Shown: positions 23,775-58,594, numbered from the stretch's first letter. The stretch is DNA of 64,000 nucleotides from a bacterium (GCA_035266845.1 DATFMP010000054.1:93709-157708), one strand, 5' to 3'. Notes: generated by a model from the letters alone, not told the origin. A program made the numbers and translations.

Positions 23775-24704
23775 CTAGAGAAGAGCCTTGGGCGTGTCGT
23801 CACGGTTGCCCCACTCCGCCCAGGAGCCATCATAGCCACGCACGCGCGGCAGGCCCAGCCATTTCAGCGTGAAGTAGGTGTGCGCGGCCCGCACCAGCAC
23901 CTGGCAGTAGACCACCGCCTCGCGGTCGGGCATCACCCCAAGCTGCTCGTAAGTCTCGCGCAGTTCCGCCGCGGACCGAAACGTGCCGTCCGGCCGCAGG
24001 TTGCGCTTCCACTCCATGGAGACGGCGCCGGGAATGTGACCCCCGTGCTTCGCGTAGCGCGTCGCACCGATGTACTCCAGCGTAGAGCGGGCATCGACCA
24101 GCACCACGGCGGGATCGTGCAGGTGCGCGCGCACCCAGGCCAGGTCCGCGATGGCCGCCGACTTTGGGCGGGGCGTGAAAGCGGCGTATGGTGCGCTGAA
24201 CGCCTCGCGGGAAACGGACCTGCCGCCGCGCAGCCAGGCCCGCCAACCGCCATCCAGCAGACGCCCGTGACCCTGGCCCAGGTAGTCCAACACCCAGAAC
24301 AGTCGCGCCGCGTAGAGGTCGCCCGCATCGTCGTACGCCACGACGGTGGTGCCCGCACCGATGCCGGCCCGACTCAGGGCTTCAGCCACCTGCGCCACAG
24401 GCGGCAGCATCCCCGCGACGCCCTTCACGGTGGCGAACAGTTCCTCGGCCGGCAGGTTCACCGCGCCTGGGATGTGCCCCTGGGCGTAAGCCGCGGCATC
24501 CCGGACATCCACGATGCGAAGGCCCGGCTGCGTGGCCTCGCGCAGGTGCGCAGCCAGCCACGGTGCCCGCACCAGCAGTTCGGGCCGCGGATGCCAGGAC
24601 GCAGCGCCAACAGCCTCTGCCCCGCCGAGCACCAGCAGCAGGGGCAGCGCAACGGCGATACCCCGAAGCGCGAACCGGGGCCTGGCAATCGAGCATAGAC
24701 GCAT
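23775..24704 (-). CDS. periplasmic tandem-rhodanese sulfurtransferase (thiosulfate/3-mercaptopyruvate sulfurtransferase-like)
   Basis: Start at MRLCSIARP (signal peptide). Two rhodanese domains. Active-site Cys in VVYCQVLVRAAH. Confidence 0.75.
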   Translation of the reverse strand: MRLCSIARPRFALRGIAVALPLLLVLGGAEAVGAASWHPRPELLVRAPWLAAHLREATQPGLRIVDVRDAAAYAQGHIPGAVNLPAEELFATVKGVAGMLPPVAQVAEALSRAGIGAGTTVVAYDDAGDLYAARLFWVLDYLGQGHGRLLDGGWRAWLRGGRSVSREAFSAPYAAFTPRPKSAAIADLAWVRAHLHDPAVVLVDARSTLEYIGATRYAKHGGHIPGAVSMEWKRNLRPDGTFRSAAELRETYEQLGVMPDREAVVYCQVLVRAAHTYFTLKWLGLPRVRGYDGSWAEWGNRDDTPKALL

Positions 24705-24810
24705 GCGTGTACCCCCGAAAGTCATGTGTGGCTGGAGTGAGGCTCGAAACGGACGGGCGCCCACCCTGCCCACCACACCGCGTCGACATATATGCTCGGG
24801 CATTCGTGGC

Positions 24811-24850
24811 AAAAAAAAACGGTGCAGCCCGTCTGGGCTGCACCGTTTGT
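24811..24850 (-). terminator. rho-independent terminator (11-bp GC stem, 4-nt loop, U9 tail on the minus strand; weaker T tail on plus)
   Basis: cggtgcagccc-gtct-gggctgcaccg is flanked by A9 on the plus strand, which is T9 on minus. It sits 30 nt downstream of the CDS ending at 24880. Confidence 0.85.
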
Positions 24851-24879
24851 CCTGAGTGCGAGGCGTCGGTGCTGGCGGT

Positions 24880-26730
24880 CTAGTCGGCCAGCTGCTCGAA
24901 CGTCTGGCTGAGGTCATCCCGCACCGTGGAGCGACGCCGCGAGAATTCGGCGAACGCGGTGTCGTGGAAGCCCCGGGAAACGGAGTACAGAAACTCGTTC
25001 AGCACGTTGGCCATCGCCATCATGGTGGTCTTCTTGCGCTTGACCGAGGTGATATCCAGCTCCAGCAGGGCGCCGGGCAGGATGTGGTACGGATTCACCA
25101 GCCCCTCGAACTCCTCGAACTTTTGCTCGAGGAAGTGCAAGCGGCTTTCCACGATGGTGCGATCGACCGGGTGCTGATTGCCGAAGATCTGCTGCAGCCG
25201 GTGCTTCGTGGCCGAGACGCGCTTGCGGAGCTCTTCCACGATGTACAGGTTGGTCTTGTTCATCTCCTCCACTTCGGTCGAGCGGGGCGGGACGAACACG
25301 ACCTCGTTCCACAGCTTCGGCGGCTCTTCCTCCACCTCTTCTTCGACGGCGCGGGAGAACCAACCGCCGGCCTTGGGCTTATCCTTCTTGAGGTATTGGC
25401 GCGCAATGTCCTCGTAGTCCTGGATGCCCTTGGCGGCCTTGTTGTCGTTGTACAGGACGTCCACCACGTTCACGACCTTCATGATCTCGGTATGAAGCTC
25501 GTCGAACTGGGCATCGTAGGCATTGCGCATACCCCGCACCTGCTCGTCATCGTAGTACGACAGGCGGATGCCGTAGCGCTCGTCGGGCAGCGCATTGACG
25601 TCCGTGTCCTCGTACTCGCGGATGACGCACTGGCGCGCGTTCTTGTAGTTCTCGATGTGCTGGTAGCCCATCTTGGAGGTGTCCAGCACCGAGGTCAGGT
25701 TGTTCACCGCCGTGTTGAAGCCGCGGTTCCGGATGTTCTCGTTGTCGATGATGCGCTTAATGTTCTCACGCACATTGAGCGGATCGAACTCGTCCGGATC
25801 GATCTCGGCGTGCAGGCCCTCGATGCGGTCCATGAAGCGCTTGGCGATGAACTGGTAACGCCGCGACTGTTCGTTGTTCACGTCGTCGTCGACGTAGTTG
25901 TCCAGGGCCTTGATCTTCTCGAACATCACCTCGGTGTCCGACAGCTCTTCCTTGCCTTCATCGATCAGGGTGTTGTTCAGCTCGGTGATTTCCTGCTCGA
26001 TCAGGGCGTGGATGTGCTTGCTGATGATGTCCTTGATGATCGTCGCCAGCGAGGTCTGGTAGTGATAGATGGGGCTGATCAACTCCGAATCCAGGATGTT
26101 GATCGCCAACTTCACATCCATCACCGTCTTGGGCTTGTAAAAGTTGTTCTTGAACGAGCACTTGGCGATCGCATAGGCGTTCTCGCCACGCACGAACGCG
26201 CCCACGTCCGACTTTTGACGCAGCAGCGCGTTGGTCTCGTTCTCCAACTCGTACATCCCACGCTGCACGTGCCCTTGCAGGTGCCCGTAGATGTTGACGA
26301 TGGACTTCTCAATCTCGCCCGTATTGAACTTGTCGATCCCGCCGATTTTGTCCAGGATCTCGGCGATCTCCCGCGGTGTATAGCGGTTGAGCGCTCGATA
26401 CTCCTCCTTGTCCACCAGATCACGTACCTTCTTGCCCAGTTCATCCTCCATAGTGGTGATGTACCGGTTGTACATGTTCTGGAAGTTCTGGTTGAAGTAG
26501 TTGTGCAGCTTCGACTTGATGGAGCCCATCACGTCGAGCTTTTCCAACACTTCAGGCGGGAGCTTCGCGTGGATATGGTTCAGGACCTTATCCACTTCCT
26601 CGTCGATGAGGAGCTTGGACTCTTCGTATTCGTTCCTGTTGTCACGATTGAGGCTGTTCCGCGACCCCACCGCACTCGGCTTTTCCGGGTGGATGACGTT
26701 GGGTCCTCGGGTCATGCTGTCTCGAGCCAT
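24880..26730 (-). CDS. hypothetical hydrophilic protein, K/N/Y/I/E/D-rich (616 aa), no recognised domain
   Basis: Long ORF with AGGAG RBS 8 nt upstream of the ATG, TTGACA box upstream and a strong terminator downstream. No P-loop and no signal peptide. Amino-acid composition is atypical for this genome but codons are GC3-rich. Confidence 0.8.
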   Translation of the reverse strand: MARDSMTRGPNVIHPEKPSAVGSRNSLNRDNRNEYEESKLLIDEEVDKVLNHIHAKLPPEVLEKLDVMGSIKSKLHNYFNQNFQNMYNRYITTMEDELGKKVRDLVDKEEYRALNRYTPREIAEILDKIGGIDKFNTGEIEKSIVNIYGHLQGHVQRGMYELENETNALLRQKSDVGAFVRGENAYAIAKCSFKNNFYKPKTVMDVKLAINILDSELISPIYHYQTSLATIIKDIISKHIHALIEQEITELNNTLIDEGKEELSDTEVMFEKIKALDNYVDDDVNNEQSRRYQFIAKRFMDRIEGLHAEIDPDEFDPLNVRENIKRIIDNENIRNRGFNTAVNNLTSVLDTSKMGYQHIENYKNARQCVIREYEDTDVNALPDERYGIRLSYYDDEQVRGMRNAYDAQFDELHTEIMKVVNVVDVLYNDNKAAKGIQDYEDIARQYLKKDKPKAGGWFSRAVEEEVEEEPPKLWNEVVFVPPRSTEVEEMNKTNLYIVEELRKRVSATKHRLQQIFGNQHPVDRTIVESRLHFLEQKFEEFEGLVNPYHILPGALLELDITSVKRKKTTMMAMANVLNEFLYSVSRGFHDTAFAEFSRRRSTVRDDLSQTFEQLAD

Positions 26731-38391: not shown

Positions 38392-38790
38392 CTATTGGCG
38401 ACGCTTCCGGATCCAGCGGATGTTGTGGTCCACGGATTTCCAGCCCTGCTTCCACAGCCGTCCCTCGCCCCAGAGGCTGTGGCCATAGGGATTGGCGGAG
38501 CGTGAGCGGCCGGCTGCGCGCGCCTTCTGACCCTCCTCACGCGCGGAAACCCGCCGCTGCCGACGAGCGTGCTCCTTCAGGCCGCCCAGTTCGTTCCACT
38601 GCAGCATCAGTTCGCGGCGCTCGCGCGGCGTAGCAGCCCGGGCCGCGCGGAGGCGCAGGGCGGCCCGGTGCTTGCGCAGGCGGCGCTTGCGGACGCCGCT
38701 GAGACGGTACATCAGCAGGCCCACCAGCGCGAACAGCAGCCAGACGACGGGCTCCCGCAGGTAGATCCACAGGCTGTCGTCCGCGGGCAC
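38392..38790 (-). CDS. hypothetical membrane-anchored protein (N-terminal TM, Arg-rich cytoplasmic tail)
   Basis: Start assigned to a GTG with a GGAG SD 7 nt upstream. The longer ORF form would initiate inside repeat copy A. Confidence 0.35.
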   Translation of the reverse strand: MPADDSLWIYLREPVVWLLFALVGLLMYRLSGVRKRRLRKHRAALRLRAARAATPRERRELMLQWNELGGLKEHARRQRRVSAREEGQKARAAGRSRSANPYGHSLWGEGRLWKQGWKSVDHNIRWIRKRRQ

Positions 38791-38911
38791 GGCAGCACTC
38801 CAATGCAGTGAACGGGATGGGCGGCCTCCGGCCGCCGGGTCTTGGAGAGCCTTCACTCCCCACGCTTCGCCTTGCAGGAATGGGGCTAGGCTCTGTTTGG
38901 GAAGTTGTTTT

Positions 38912-39092
38912 TTGAGCGGCTGGGCCACTTAGAACCACAAAGAATCCAATGTGGGGGCCGAGGGCTCCCACACCCCAACTACGGGCCTTGACCAAGGCAG
39001 GCGCAGTTCCACCCACAAATGGGGTCCAGGGAGCCTTGCTCCCTGGTGGCGGTATGGGGGCAACGCCCCCTGGCCGACAGGCTTTTCAAAAC
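38912..39092 (+). repeat. ~185-bp multi-hairpin intergenic repeat, copy A (first hairpin degenerate)
   Basis: Aligns by eye with copies at 50215-50405 (reverse) and 57335-57520. Shared core (A/G)AACCAC(A/G)AGAAATCCAA(T/C)G(T/C)GGGGGCC...GGGTCCAG(G/A)GAG...GGGGGCA(A/G).GCCCC...GCTTT. Confidence 0.75.
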
Positions 39093-39097
39093 AGAGG

Positions 39098-39703
39098 CTA
39101 GTACAGGCGATCGCGGATGGATTCCTGGGTCAGGCGCTCGGATTCTTCCACGTCCGTGCCCAACTGATCGGCCAGCATGCGCCCCATGGAGGGGATCGTG
39201 CCGCGCTCCACCTGGCTGGCCGGATCCCACAGCCGCGAGCGGATGAAGGCCTTGGCGCAGTGCAGAAACACCTCGTCCACCTCCACCAGCAGCCCGCTGG
39301 CGGGCGTGCGGCCCCGCACAGCCAGCGGCGCCAGCAATGCCGCATCCGTTGTGATGCGAGCCCGGCCGTTGACGCGCAGGGTTTCGTTCACACCGGGGAT
39401 CATGAACAGCAGGCCCACCTGCGGGTTCTCCAGCACATTGCGCATGCCGTCCAGGCGGTTGTTGCCAGGCCGATCGGGAATGAGCAGCGTGCGGTCGTCC
39501 AGCACGGCCACAAAGCCCGGGGCATCGCCCTTGGGCGAGGTATCCACGGCGCCGTCCACACCCGCCGTGCCCATCACCAGGAATGGGCTGTGCGCGATGA
39601 ACGTGCGGCAATGCGCGTCCAGCGCAGCGAGTTGTTTGCGGACGGCCCGCTCGCCGGGATCACCGTAGAGACCGCGCAGGGCCTCCTCGCTGCGGATTTC
39701 CAT
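39098..39703 (-). CDS. pyridoxamine 5'-phosphate oxidase-family FMN-binding protein
   Basis: Start at MEIRSEEALRGLY. The PNPOx-like split-barrel pattern is my assignment. Confidence 0.6.
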   Translation of the reverse strand: MEIRSEEALRGLYGDPGERAVRKQLAALDAHCRTFIAHSPFLVMGTAGVDGAVDTSPKGDAPGFVAVLDDRTLLIPDRPGNNRLDGMRNVLENPQVGLLFMIPGVNETLRVNGRARITTDAALLAPLAVRGRTPASGLLVEVDEVFLHCAKAFIRSRLWDPASQVERGTIPSMGRMLADQLGTDVEESERLTQESIRDRLY

Positions 39704-49056: not shown

Positions 49057-50211
49057 ATGAAGGAAGACCACTACATCGGGGTGCTCGACCCGCGGATCCT
49101 GGAGTACGTCAAGTTCAGCCGCTTCCACTGGTGGGAAATCGGAGCCATCGCCGTGGTGCTGGGGGCCCTGCTCGGCTATGCCCTGCTGGCCGTAGTGCTG
49201 GATCGTCGCGCGCGTGCCCGGCGCCGCAAGCACAAGCAGCTGTCGCGGCTGGAGGCCTGGCTCGACGCCTGGCGGCTGGAGCCGGACGAGGAAGAGGCCC
49301 TGTGGGAGCTGGCCGGCCAACGCAAGCCGCTGGCCCTGTACGCGCTGCTGGCGGAGCCGCTGCGCTTCGAGCGCGCCGTGCACGAGGCACTTATCAGCGG
49401 CAAGCACCTGCCCTTCACCGAGCGCGTGCGCGATGCGCTGGGCTATCGCAGCGACAACCTGAGCTGCCCCGTCGTCTCCACACGACAGTTGATGGTGGGC
49501 GACCACCTGCGCTTTGCCGTGTGGGAAGAGGGGCGCCCGCAGCACCACTATGCCATCGTCACGGCCGTTTCCGCCGCCGGCCTGGCCGTCGAGCTGACCG
49601 AGGCGGGCTTCCGCGACGTGACGAGCGCGCGCGGGGAGACCGAACTTTTCTTTCTGCGTGGGAACGACCTGGAGGTGCGCTTCCCGCTGGCCGTCCGCAC
49701 GGCGGATGCGGAGCGCCACCGGCTGCTGCTGGCGCATCAACTGGTGCGCGGGGGGCAACGGCCGCGCAGCACGCGCCTGCCCATGCTGCGACCCATCACC
49801 TTTCGCCTGCGGGCCCAGGCCGCGGAGCTGGCCTCACCGCACGCCCTCGCCACCGGCGAACTTGCCGCCGGGCAACCGGGCGGCGCCCAGGGTCAGGAGA
49901 TGCGCGGTGCGCTGCTGGAGATGAGCGAGGGAGGCTTCTCGATGGTGACCCTCCACCCCGTGGCCGAGGGCGCGTATGTGGAGCACGCCATGCAACTGCC
50001 GCGGGGCCGCTACCTCCCCATCGTGGGGCGCGTGCTGGACTGCCGCGCATTCGCCGGCAACCGCTGGCTGGTGCGCTGCGAGCTGCGCGGGCTGACCCCC
50101 ACCCAGCGCAACACGCTGTCGCAGGTGCTGCGGCTGGAACAGGCGCGGCGCCTGCGCGCCATCCAGGCCGAGCGCCGCAAACGCCTGCGGGAATCCGGCG
50201 AGGCGCCCTAG
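49057..50211 (+). CDS. hypothetical membrane-anchored protein, possible degenerate PilZ-like domains
   Basis: N-terminal TM. Weak LEMSEGGF (DxSxGG-like) motif. Call speculative. Confidence 0.4.
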   Translation: MKEDHYIGVLDPRILEYVKFSRFHWWEIGAIAVVLGALLGYALLAVVLDRRARARRRKHKQLSRLEAWLDAWRLEPDEEEALWELAGQRKPLALYALLAEPLRFERAVHEALISGKHLPFTERVRDALGYRSDNLSCPVVSTRQLMVGDHLRFAVWEEGRPQHHYAIVTAVSAAGLAVELTEAGFRDVTSARGETELFFLRGNDLEVRFPLAVRTADAERHRLLLAHQLVRGGQRPRSTRLPMLRPITFRLRAQAAELASPHALATGELAAGQPGGAQGQEMRGALLEMSEGGFSMVTLHPVAEGAYVEHAMQLPRGRYLPIVGRVLDCRAFAGNRWLVRCELRGLTPTQRNTLSQVLRLEQARRLRAIQAERRKRLRESGEAP

Positions 50212-50214
50212 GCT

Positions 50215-50405
50215 GTACTTTGAAAAGCATTTCGCACAGGGGGGCGTTGCCCCCACACCCCCGCCAAGGAGCGGGGCTCTCTGGACCCTGTTTGCGGGCG
50301 AGACCGCGCCGGCCTTGGTCAGGGTCCGTATTGAGGGTGTGGGGCCCTTGGCCCCCGCGTTGGATTTCTCGTGGTTCTCAAGCGGCCCAGCCGCTTGAGA
50401 ACGCA
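50215..50405 (-). repeat. ~185-bp multi-hairpin intergenic repeat, copy B (reverse orientation)
   Basis: The reverse complement aligns with copies A and C. It has an intact terminal hairpin CAAGCGGCTGGGCCGCTTG. Confidence 0.75.
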
Positions 50406-50494
50406 CGTCCAAACATAATCTGGACGGTGGGGCAGGCGCTGGCCGCGCAGCAGGGAAGTGCTACGCGCGCCACCCTGCACGGCCCGGGAGGGAT

Positions 50495-57169: not shown

Positions 57170-57334
57170 GGCAGTTCCCCCTTTTGGGCGCCCGGCGGGC
57201 CGCGAGCCACGCCGTCACGGCCGCGGGCGCAGGTGCTGACCCAGCATCGGGCAAACCCGGGCGGGGGTCAACGGGCCCAGGAAGCCCCGCGCGGCAAGGC
57301 ACGCGGCTGGTCAGCGCCGCCAGGTTCTGCTTGG

Positions 57335-57520
57335 GAGTGGGTCGTCAAGCGGCTGGGCCGCTTGAAAAGCACAAGAAATCCAATGCGGGGGCCAAGGGCC
57401 CCCACACCCCCAATACAGACCCAGACCAGGGCCGACGCGATCTCGCCCACAAATAGGGTCCAGGGAGTTCCACTCCCTGGTGGGGGTATGGGGGCAGAGC
57501 CCCTATGGCTGAAGTGCTTT
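57335..57520 (+). repeat. ~185-bp multi-hairpin intergenic repeat, copy C (best preserved)
   Basis: Hairpins CAAGCGGC-tggg-CCGCTTG; GGGGGCC-aag-GGCCCCC; CAGGGAG-ttcca-CTCCCTG; GGGGGCA-gag-CCCC. Confidence 0.75.
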
Positions 57521-57532
57521 CCTGCACACAAC

Positions 57533-58594
57533 CTAGCGCACGAGACCGCGGGCCCGCACGCGCCAGGTCAGTTCGACCTCGCCGCCGCGCACGCCCAGCA
57601 ATTCGTTGTGCAGGTTGGCCACCGTGCAGCAGTGGTTGGGGATCACCGTCACGCGCTCGCCCACCACGGGCTTGCGGACGCAGGCGCTCACGTCCACGTT
57701 GGCGTGTTCCTCGGAGTAGCCATAGATGACCGCCTCCGGATACTCGACGACCGTGCCGTATGTGGCGTCGCGCCAGAGCAGGCGGTCGGCGCTGAGGGTC
57801 TTCGAGCCGCCGTCCAGGATGGCGCGCTCGGCGGTGGGCCGGCTGACGACGGTCATCAGCACGCGCATGGCGCACTCGTCCAGCGTGGCCGTGCCCGCGG
57901 CAAGCGTGTTGCTGTCGTTGAAGACGTAGGTGCCCGCACGATGCTCCGTGATCTGCGGAATCTCGTGCACTCGCCAGGTCTGCGGCGTGCCACCGCCGCT
58001 CACGGTCTCCGCCTCCAGCCCGGCGGCGCCCAGCAAGGCCACGGCCTCGGCCAGGAAGGGCGGCGTGGTCTCTAGGTTCGTGGGAAAGGTCATCAGCCCC
58101 GCGAAGCGCACGCCGGGTATCCGGTCGATCTCCTGCGCCAGCACGAGGGCCTGGGCGGGCGTCTGCACGCCCGTGCGGCCCGCGCCCGTGTCGCACTCGA
58201 TCAGCAGCGGCACCTCCAATCCCGCCGCTGCGGCGGCCTCGCTGATGCCCTGGGCCACCGGGGCGGAGTCCACCGCCACGCTGACCCGACAGCGCCGCGC
58301 CAACGCCGTCAGGCGGGCCAGCTTGGCCGGGCCGATCAGGTTATACGGGATGAAGATGTCGTCGAAGCCCGCATCCGCGAAGACCTCCGCCTCTCCCAGC
58401 TTCTGGCAGGTAATGCCCTGGGCCCCCGCCTCCAGTTGCAGGCGGCCGATCTCAGGGGTCTTGTGCGTCTTGATGTGCGGCCGGAAGCGCAGGCCGTGCG
58501 CATCGCAGTAGGCCTGCATCTTGCGGATGTTCGCCGCCATGATGTCGAGGTCCACCGTGACGATGGGCGTTTCCAGATCCTCCACGCGGGGCAT
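57533..58594 (-). CDS. alanine-racemase-fold PLP enzyme (DSD1 / D-threonine aldolase / D-serine dehydratase-like family)
   Basis: FRPHIKTHK PLP-lysine motif. 353 aa. Immediately downstream of the predicted selenoprotein. Confidence 0.7.
   Translation of the reverse strand: MPRVEDLETPIVTVDLDIMAANIRKMQAYCDAHGLRFRPHIKTHKTPEIGRLQLEAGAQGITCQKLGEAEVFADAGFDDIFIPYNLIGPAKLARLTALARRCRVSVAVDSAPVAQGISEAAAAAGLEVPLLIECDTGAGRTGVQTPAQALVLAQEIDRIPGVRFAGLMTFPTNLETTPPFLAEAVALLGAAGLEAETVSGGGTPQTWRVHEIPQITEHRAGTYVFNDSNTLAAGTATLDECAMRVLMTVVSRPTAERAILDGGSKTLSADRLLWRDATYGTVVEYPEAVIYGYSEEHANVDVSACVRKPVVGERVTVIPNHCCTVANLHNELLGVRGGEVELTWRVRARGLVR

Follow-up and report, generated by a model that had tools for sequence, protein, structure and literature searches.

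A 216-bp Intergenic Repeat at CTAG Stop Codons of an Uncultured Bacterium, Best Read as a New MITE Family

The bacterial DNA considered here, a stretch of 64,000 nucleotides with a GC content of 68.6% that is referred to as the window, contains three intergenic regions in which similar strings of hairpins recur, raising the question of what kind of element they represent and why each of them lies at the end of a gene. An earlier note, drawn up by eye from the sequence, had described three dispersed homologous segments of about 185 bp and had suggested a mobile element of the MITE or REP type or a structured RNA. The homology is real, as the three segments share a mean column identity of 85% over approximately 225 columns in a MAFFT alignment, with 80-90% identity between copies, and an HMM built from the three copies finds only these three matches in the 64-kb window, with E-values of 3e-72 to 8e-74. 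The homology runs about 25-30 bp past the earlier limits on either side, and the length of about 185 bp is corrected to a unit of 216-217 bp. Copy A (38886-39101, plus strand; nhmmer E = 2.6e-72) is a full-length copy of 216 bp running from CTAG to CTAG, copy B (50208-50423, minus strand; E = 8e-74) and copy C (57320-57536, plus strand; E = 8.4e-74) being likewise full-length. All three are non-coding: there is no Pfam-bearing ORF, and 1-nt indels between copies break every frame, indicating that the element is not translated. A small ORF or peptide was considered and rejected, the 50-aa ORF of copy A stopping at the CTAG and being destroyed elsewhere by 1-nt indels.

In the orientation of the element, the left end consists of CTAG followed by the left TIR, GGYTCTGTTTGGGAAG. 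Four hairpins and two AT-rich spacers then follow as previously described, namely hairpin A (GTTCTCAAGCGGC-TGG-GCCGCTTGAGAAC) with an A-rich spacer, hairpin B (GGGGGCC-AAG-GGCCCCC) with a spacer whose terminal sequence is CCCRCAAAYA, hairpin 1 (CCAGGGAGC-NNN-GCTCCCTGG), which is preceded by GGGT, and hairpin 2 (TGGGGGC-AAA-GCCCCCA), which is preceded by TGGGGGTA; a tail of about 30 nt with the right TIR and a terminal CTAG completes the right end. The earlier description of hairpins and spacers is thus sound, and what it overlooked are the TIRs and the overlap of the right-end CTAG with a stop codon. The TIR of copy A (CTAGGCTCTGTTTGGGAA / TTTCAAAACAGAGGCTAG; arms at 38886-38903 and 39084-39101) is an imperfect repeat of 18 nt with 83% complementarity. 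A degenerate TIR pattern (up to three mismatches) matches at element ends only, with three matches versus 0.01 expected, among them the right end of copy B (50208-50226). The first hairpin of copy A is decayed, as had been noticed, relative to the perfect 13-bp stem of hairpin A in copy B (50374-50402), and copy C has hairpins at 57345-57365, 57384-57406, and 57460-57480. Hairpins 1 and 2 form a two-hairpin "GGGT" cassette, defined by inverted repeats and by a covariance model, R1, at 39022-39073 in copy A (plus strand, 60.2 bits; hairpin 1 at 39026-39046 and hairpin 2 at 39056-39070), at 50237-50288 in copy B (minus strand, 53.9 bits), and at 57456-57507 in copy C (plus strand, 66.0 bits). 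An inverted, diverged version of the hairpin-2 region (TGGGGGTGTGGGGGC versus TGGGGGTATGGGGGC) is also present in the left half, which makes the element loosely palindromic overall.

According to a GC3-based gene map and Pfam, each of the three right-end CTAGs includes the TAG stop codon of a gene that abuts the element in the opposite orientation. The gene at copy A belongs to the PNPOx family (39098-39703, minus strand; Pfam PF01243; 201-aa product identical to P0121), with its TAG stop at 39098-39100; the gene at copy B encodes a PilZ-domain protein (49057-50211, plus strand; PF07238; a called gene of 384 aa in L001), with its stop at 50209-50211; and the gene at copy C encodes a PLP-enzyme of the D-TA family (57533-58594, minus strand; PF01168 and PF14031; 353-aa product identical to P0001), with its stop at 57533-57535. 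Copy B is flanked by the PilZ-domain gene and a convergent glyoxalase-family gene and copy C by the co-directional D-TA PLP-enzyme and patatin genes, the genes around copy A being co-directional as well. The second neighbor of copy A is a gene of about 132 aa (38392-38790, minus strand) whose translation aligns with the downstream genes of eight related contigs (L138-L145); it lies directly after PNPOx in all of these relatives, and copy A intervenes here.

The same eight contigs provide empty sites. Their PNPOx orthologs, with 76-88% amino acid identity, occur in identical synteny (FtsH-Psd-RlmN-PNPOx-130aa-amidase), and in 8/8 of them the gene ends in TAC-TAG-C and is followed by the next gene after 36-60 bp, without the element. 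At the copy A site, the window reads GTAC TAG, then CCTCTGTTTTGAAAAGCC ... CCCAAACAGAGC CTAG as the additional segment, and then CCCCATTCC, versus GTAC TAG CCCACCCGG in L141; written in letters, GTAC-TAG(CCTCTG...212 bp...CAGAGC-CTAG)CCCCATT in the window is to be compared with GTAC-TAG-CCCACCC in L141. The comparison of filled and empty sites therefore identifies copy A as a precise 212-bp insertion together with a duplicated CTAG, the target being made up of the C that ends the last sense codon and the TAG that follows it; a check for target-site duplications had been suggested at the outset, and it finds a perfect one here, the eight empty sites being orthologous. For copy C, the orthologous genes in L004 and L005 likewise end in TAG, and the element is absent. 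The intact duplication is confined to copy A, left flanks elsewhere being CCAG, CCAG, CCAA, and CTAA (CCAG, a degenerate duplication, at copy B), and the right-end flanks of three truncated copies are CTAC, CTAC, and CTAA. TA is present at both ends of copy A, and whether CTAG or only its inner TA is duplicated makes no difference to the resulting sequence. CTAG is the insertion target, and what is duplicated is either this tetranucleotide or its inner TA.

The tetranucleotide itself is scarce in the window, with 21 occurrences observed versus 85 (Markov-1) or 186 (mononucleotide) expected, an under-representation of about 4-fold to about 9-fold, respectively, and TA is under-represented about 2-fold. 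NNC-TAG stop codons constitute 8 of the 21 CTAG sites (about 40%), and three of these eight are occupied by the element. Because both TIRs start with G after TA, insertion regenerates the TAG stop; insertions at stop codons are therefore harmless to the interrupted gene, and CTAGs within genes are unavailable. The scarcity of CTAG and the regeneration of the stop account for most of the association with stop codons, not for the orientation of the copies.

The best reading of these observations is that the repeats constitute a new, previously uncatalogued MITE family, since they are short and non-coding, possess TIRs, show a target duplication relative to empty sites, and occur as dispersed copies with presence/absence variation, all of which agree with the definition of a MITE; the mobile character and the additional copies anticipated in the earlier note are thereby borne out. 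The likely explanation as a whole is a non-autonomous MITE of about 216 bp that occupies CTAG stop codons, is moved in trans by a DDE enzyme, and is retained in one orientation. The transposase would probably be encoded elsewhere in the genome, candidates being the IS5 group, with a 4-bp CTAG/YTAR duplication as in MITEPsy1, and the IS630 family, with TA within CTAG; IS630 prefers CTAG and duplicates TA. The scarcity of CTAG, together with selection, would hold the family at stop codons. Pfam detects no transposase among the 46 ORFs of the window, which are housekeeping genes (fatty-acid synthesis, FtsH, RlmN, H+-pyrophosphatase, and others), and 199 kb of DNA from the lineage contains no TIR pairs beyond those of the copies. 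An identity of 80-90% between copies does not demonstrate current mobility.

Known elements of similar type offer points of comparison. MITEPsy1 of Pseudomonas syringae, which derives from the IS5-family ISPsy2, targets CTAG or YTAA with a 4-nt duplication (PMC3189936). Like the present element, it is a non-coding MITE with TIRs of about 18 nt and a CTAG target, and there is a weak resemblance between its inner TIR (..TCTGAAAAAGCC) and ..TTTTGAAAAGC of this element, the homology shown here being limited to a few TIR bases; unlike the present element, it is 100 nt long, has no internal hairpin series, resides in an unrelated host lineage, and has no reported association with stop codons. RUP of Streptococcus pneumoniae is a small, TA-flanked TIR element that uses TA targets and whose mobilization in trans is ascribed to an IS630-family transposase (PMC2229807). 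The small size, TIRs, and flanking TA of RUP and other IS630-mobilised MITEs are shared with the present element, whereas RUP is AT-rich, measures 107 bp, and targets IS elements.

A palindromic target predicts random orientation, and the stop codon is found at the right end in 11 of 12 copies (10 of 11 distinct loci), where the last three bases of the right end form the stop of a long, high-GC3 ORF on the other strand. Each of the full-length copies that are independent, five in number, has the same end at the stop (p ~ 0.06 for these five). The truncated copies carry no independent weight as to orientation, since selection would act against losing the stop-side end and the pattern used for searching was located in the right half. 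The stop-proximal half is the best conserved and is kept in every partial copy; three of the truncated copies (in L007, L008, and L012b) span precisely the interval that separates two convergent stop codons, and the other three start 27-54 bp beyond, or overlap, the neighboring stop. We infer that selection keeps the copies in one orientation. In the retained orientation, the mRNA of the interrupted gene would enter GC-rich hairpins, each with a conserved U-rich tract behind it (hairpin 1' and then ACCC-UAUUUGUGGG, hairpin B' and then CAUUGGAUUUCUUGUGG, as read along the gene), and in the opposite orientation the same spacers are A-rich. This asymmetry of hairpins and U-tracts offers a plausible reason for the bias, and the element might conceivably replace the 3' terminator or stabilizer of the interrupted gene. 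The shorter copies would be one-sided decay products that retain the stop-codon side because its deletion would damage the gene.

A second, related multi-hairpin family is represented in L007 (1015-1400) by two tandem units of about 200 bp between convergent genes, and the same end lies at the stop there too: its right end (...GCCGCTCTG-CTAG) overlaps the TAG stop of an opposite-strand ORF (1397-2887). This second family includes a degenerate copy of the same two-hairpin cassette.

As to the host, the proteins encoded around the repeats are exact matches to those of a contig of about 158.7 kb from an uncultured MAG, which occurs in both ENA and JGI assemblies. Its FtsH is 81% identical to that of a SAR324-cluster MAG and 74-76% identical to those of Ca. 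Lambdaproteobacteria and "Deltaproteobacteria" MAGs. The wider family predicted from the density of copies is found both just beyond the window and in related metagenome contigs, eight of which were matched in a search with a core pattern; further full and partial copies are carried by L001 and L007-L013, the last seven being separate loci except that L009 and L012 share one site, and the related contigs contribute two more full-length copies and six without part or all of the left half. The copy in L001 (384-563), about 450 bp beyond the 3' end of the window, is a fourth, more diverged one that is left-truncated and has lost the right-end CTAG. The core pattern has no match in species-representative genomes, a set without the source genome, and no family copy occurs in 76 kb of DNA from related species. 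Judged by these searches, the family is restricted to one narrow clade, that of an uncultured bacterium resembling SAR324/Lambdaproteobacteria. The copy C locus is present in three independent assemblies (two from ENA and one from JGI). Two short assemblies of it, L002 and L003, end inside the element or about 40 bp past it, as a multi-copy repeat is expected to break assembly.

Outside the source lineage, resemblance to the element is limited to the two-hairpin cassette. A scan for the hairpin-1 pattern with one genome per species returned more than 118 loci, and in 90 of the 98 distinct hits among the matches listed, a second strong hairpin follows after YGGG. The hosts among the matches listed represent at least six other phyla and include Magnetococcales, Acetobacteraceae/Rhodospirillales, Desulfovibrionaceae, Synergistaceae, rumen Clostridia, Sumerlaeota, and unclassified MAGs. 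The layout consists of an A-rich tract, GGGT with a G-first hairpin, YGGG(G)T with a second G-first hairpin bearing a purine triloop, and often a T-tract. The R1 model, built on 38 seed sequences, finds in the window only the three element copies, plus minus-strand echoes of the palindromic hairpin 1 in copies A and C, and in other loci it finds many copies that had not been selected by the pattern. In these unselected copies the sequence of hairpin 1 is not conserved but covaries, as in the arms GCAGGGAGA/TCTCCCTGC, CAAGGGGGC/GCCCCCTTG, and CCAGGAGGAGA/TCTCCTCCTGG. In an alignment of 73 distinct copies, which is itself fitted to the model, 13 of 14 pairs show changes on both sides, 98.8% of cells pair, versus 34-64% with slid partners, and none of 500 shuffles attains the observed score. 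The GGGT leader is present in 64 of the 73 copies, and the loops of hairpin 2 are purine triloops. The upstream flanks hold 485 A versus 281 T and the downstream flanks 465 T versus 327 A; G-T wobbles outnumber A-C mismatches by 13 to 6, which is too weak to call the strand of selection.

In these genomes the cassette occurs inside MITEs with different ends and different target duplications, as well as in short gaps between convergent genes. In Ca. Magnetaquicoccus inordinatus UR-1, it lies just inside the left end of a high-copy MITE of about 290 bp (loci L023, L030, L040, L056, L062, L063, L079, L080, L086, L103, and L131) with perfect 11-bp TIRs (GTAACTATTCA / TGAATAGTTAC) and 8-bp target duplications, such as GCCTACTC, GTTTTGAG, and TATGCGTT. 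The MAG "bacterium Dive96_bin1.51" (JAJRTK01; many loci within L016-L128) contains at least two abundant MITE families with TIRs of 23-24 nt (GGGTATCCACGTAAGGCGGGACA and GGCCTCGGTCATGGTACCGGCCAC), in which the cassette is followed by one or two more GGGT-type hairpins and inside which many contigs end. Rumen Clostridia MAGs (L048:2693-3123 and L015:7154-7318) carry tandem arrays of two to three head-to-tail units of 111-126 bp, each composed of a longer AT-containing hairpin and the two-hairpin cassette. In Synergistaceae MAGs, the cassettes form divergent inverted pairs 10-100 bp apart (L083:5061-5166, L085:767-916, L097:5860-6008, L064:1277-1421, L028:1811-1937, and L090:2879-3026), at least two of which (L085 and L097) flank a central A/T-flanked hairpin and produce REPIN-like palindromic elements. 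Inverted cassette pairs are found in Magnetococcales as well.

The cassette appears to be undescribed in Rfam and the searchable literature. At 12 loci from other phyla, the cassette has no Rfam match at gathering thresholds, a literature search with GGGTCCAGGGAG and its complement returned unrelated eukaryotic primers only, and keyword searching of the literature on repeats of this kind in SAR324, Magnetococcales, or Synergistaceae gave nothing relevant. It is possible, and is proposed here tentatively and with more doubt than conviction, that the cassette is a portable structured module acquired or retained by unrelated MITEs, forming a third "tagged hairpin" class beside the GTAG and CGTC REPs. 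Such a module could work as a terminator or insulator in both directions, making the insertion of a MITE less costly, or it could be a structure recognized by some host or mobile-element protein. Three other ideas about the cassette were rejected. An intramolecular triplex, in which the linker would mirror the purine arm of hairpin 2, was prompted by hand-picked examples and did not survive a systematic test (mirror 266, direct 279, shuffled 253 +/- 7); an origin of the GGGTC-stem-TGGAAT loops from a tRNA T-arm rests on anecdotal resemblance; and an association with phages is attributed to chance, six viral-contig matches being one coding-sequence family without a second hairpin.

Other explanations of the element as a whole have to be weighed against a DDE-moved MITE. 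It is unlikely that the repeat is instead a REP/REPIN-like element that a RAYT/TIRYT-type tyrosine transposase (HUH/Y1) mobilizes in single-stranded form. In that case, the hairpins would be recognition structures, the "TAG" a cleavage or target tag, and the apparent duplication a left target tetranucleotide identical to the 3' cleavage site of the element, as in IS200/IS605. The string of GC-rich hairpins, each with an unpaired conserved GGGT ahead, echoes the GTAG- and CGTC-tagged REPs, the cassettes are paired in inverted orientation in several genomes, copies that are anchored at one end and biased in orientation would suit a strand-specific mechanism, and the purine-rich triloops of hairpin 2 are closed by C-G. 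Loops of this composition and closing pair are exceptionally stable when DNA is single-stranded. REPs and REPINs of the GTAG and CGTC classes, which are RAYT-associated, adjoin the 3' ends of ORFs, often supply TAG stops, and often form inverted dimers, and long double-palindromic TIRs flank some Y1 transposases (PMC3733652). The likeness thus extends to a hairpin with a conserved unpaired tetranucleotide ahead and to a position at ORF 3' ends. However, a REP unit is a palindrome of 20-40 nt with a GTAG or CGTC tag, whereas here GGGT-tagged hairpins stand in tandem direct order inside a 216-bp unit with genuine TIRs, and TAG is already present in the empty sites and hence belongs to the target rather than to the element. 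Moreover, no Y1 (RAYT) transposase is found among the 46 ORFs of the window, the orientation of copies tracks the gene and not replication, with copies B and C lying 7 kb apart in opposite orientations, and the same cassette resides in MITEs whose 8-bp target duplications are typical of DDE enzymes.

Two further mobile-element identities were considered and set aside. The ends of the element misfit the RYYYAAC/GTTRRRY of an integron attC or gene cassette, and its neighbors are syntenic housekeeping genes. An IS200/IS605-type PATE or an omega-RNA-like right end was considered for the subterminal hairpins and the sharp end, and is disfavored by the true TIR and by the cassette adjoining the opposite end in other MITEs.

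A functional reading, according to which the repeat is a cis-acting RNA or DNA element at 3' ends (a terminator, an mRNA-stabilizing 3' UTR, or a small RNA) with incidental inverted ends and with spread and conservation reflecting selection for function, is judged quite improbable. Both strands fold far better than shuffled sequences (z = -3.1 and -4.9), which is expected in any case because the DNA is rich in palindromes. The AT-rich spacers are conserved despite the high GC content and lie 3' of the hairpins in the sense of the abutting gene, and the conservation of the stop-proximal half and the A-rich upstream and T-rich downstream flanks of the cassette across phyla point in the same direction. 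Against these stand the precise insertion, the target duplication, and the empty orthologous sites, which indicate transposition rather than vertical descent, as well as functionally unrelated host genes. Covariation within the family gives no support either: the RNAalifold covariation term is +0.59, most pairs are invariant, and 5 of 35 pairs show any double change, a comparison that is uninformative because the copies are too similar. The stem changes that the earlier note called compensatory-looking exist in small number, two doubles in hairpin A of L009 and one in that of L011 being recognized by hand, and they lack statistical support. Rfam has no match at gathering thresholds over the whole window, and a permissive scan of copy A yields only noise with E > 3, so that the expected absence of the element from Rfam holds. 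No promoter-like site is found in the element; a terminator scan detects no site in copies A and B and one weak terminator-like site in copy C (hairpin B', minus strand), and the U-rich tracts after the hairpins, although conserved, are either short or displaced by 4 nt. The canonical terminators of the organism also look different: a textbook bidirectional intrinsic terminator, A9-CGGTGCAGCCC-GTCT-GGGCTGCACCG-TTTGT, is located at about 24810-24852, downstream of the gene at 24880-26730 (minus strand), indicating that canonical terminators unlike the hairpins of the element are in use. A function gained after insertion would in addition fit the MITE explanation and not rival it. For comparison, ERIC/IRU and Correia (NEMIS) elements are MITE-like, are co-transcribed with their neighbors, and form long RNA hairpins, ERIC having an orientation-dependent effect on neighboring mRNA and its stability (PMC2229807); they have no sequence similarity to the present element, and their effects are experimental, whereas any effect of this element is inferred.

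Chance similarity of GC-rich intergenic hairpins or an assembly artefact is hardly credible, even though the source contig is metagenome-assembled and hairpins abound in GC-rich genomes, given E-values of about 1e-72, the recovery of copy C in independent assemblies, and the position of the copies between well-supported genes with conserved synteny.

Read as a MITE family, the repeat explains three odd intergenic regions of the window and, likewise, assembly breaks after certain genes in this lineage. Repeats that overlap stop codons may also be misread by gene callers as C-terminal extensions. The family provides a natural example of how a target preference and the scarcity of a tetranucleotide in a high-GC genome steer a transposon harmlessly to gene ends, to which it is channelled because CTAG survives mainly as NNC-TAG stops. 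The MITE family itself is an ordinary kind of element, and the cross-phylum cassette is the most novel lead; if it is a true module shared by MITEs across phyla, the GGGT double hairpin would be a searchable signature for MITEs in uncultured bacteria and the cassette a testable candidate for a portable terminator or insulator.

One further site in the window recalls the ends of the element. The TAG stop of a rhodanese-like gene (23775-24917, minus strand) is followed by GCTGCGTCCGGAAAAGCC (23775-23795, minus strand), which resembles the element end TAG/GCTGTGTTTTGAAAAGC with three mismatches to the 17-mer TIR pattern, and this site may be either a solo-end relic at another C-TAG stop or a chance match.
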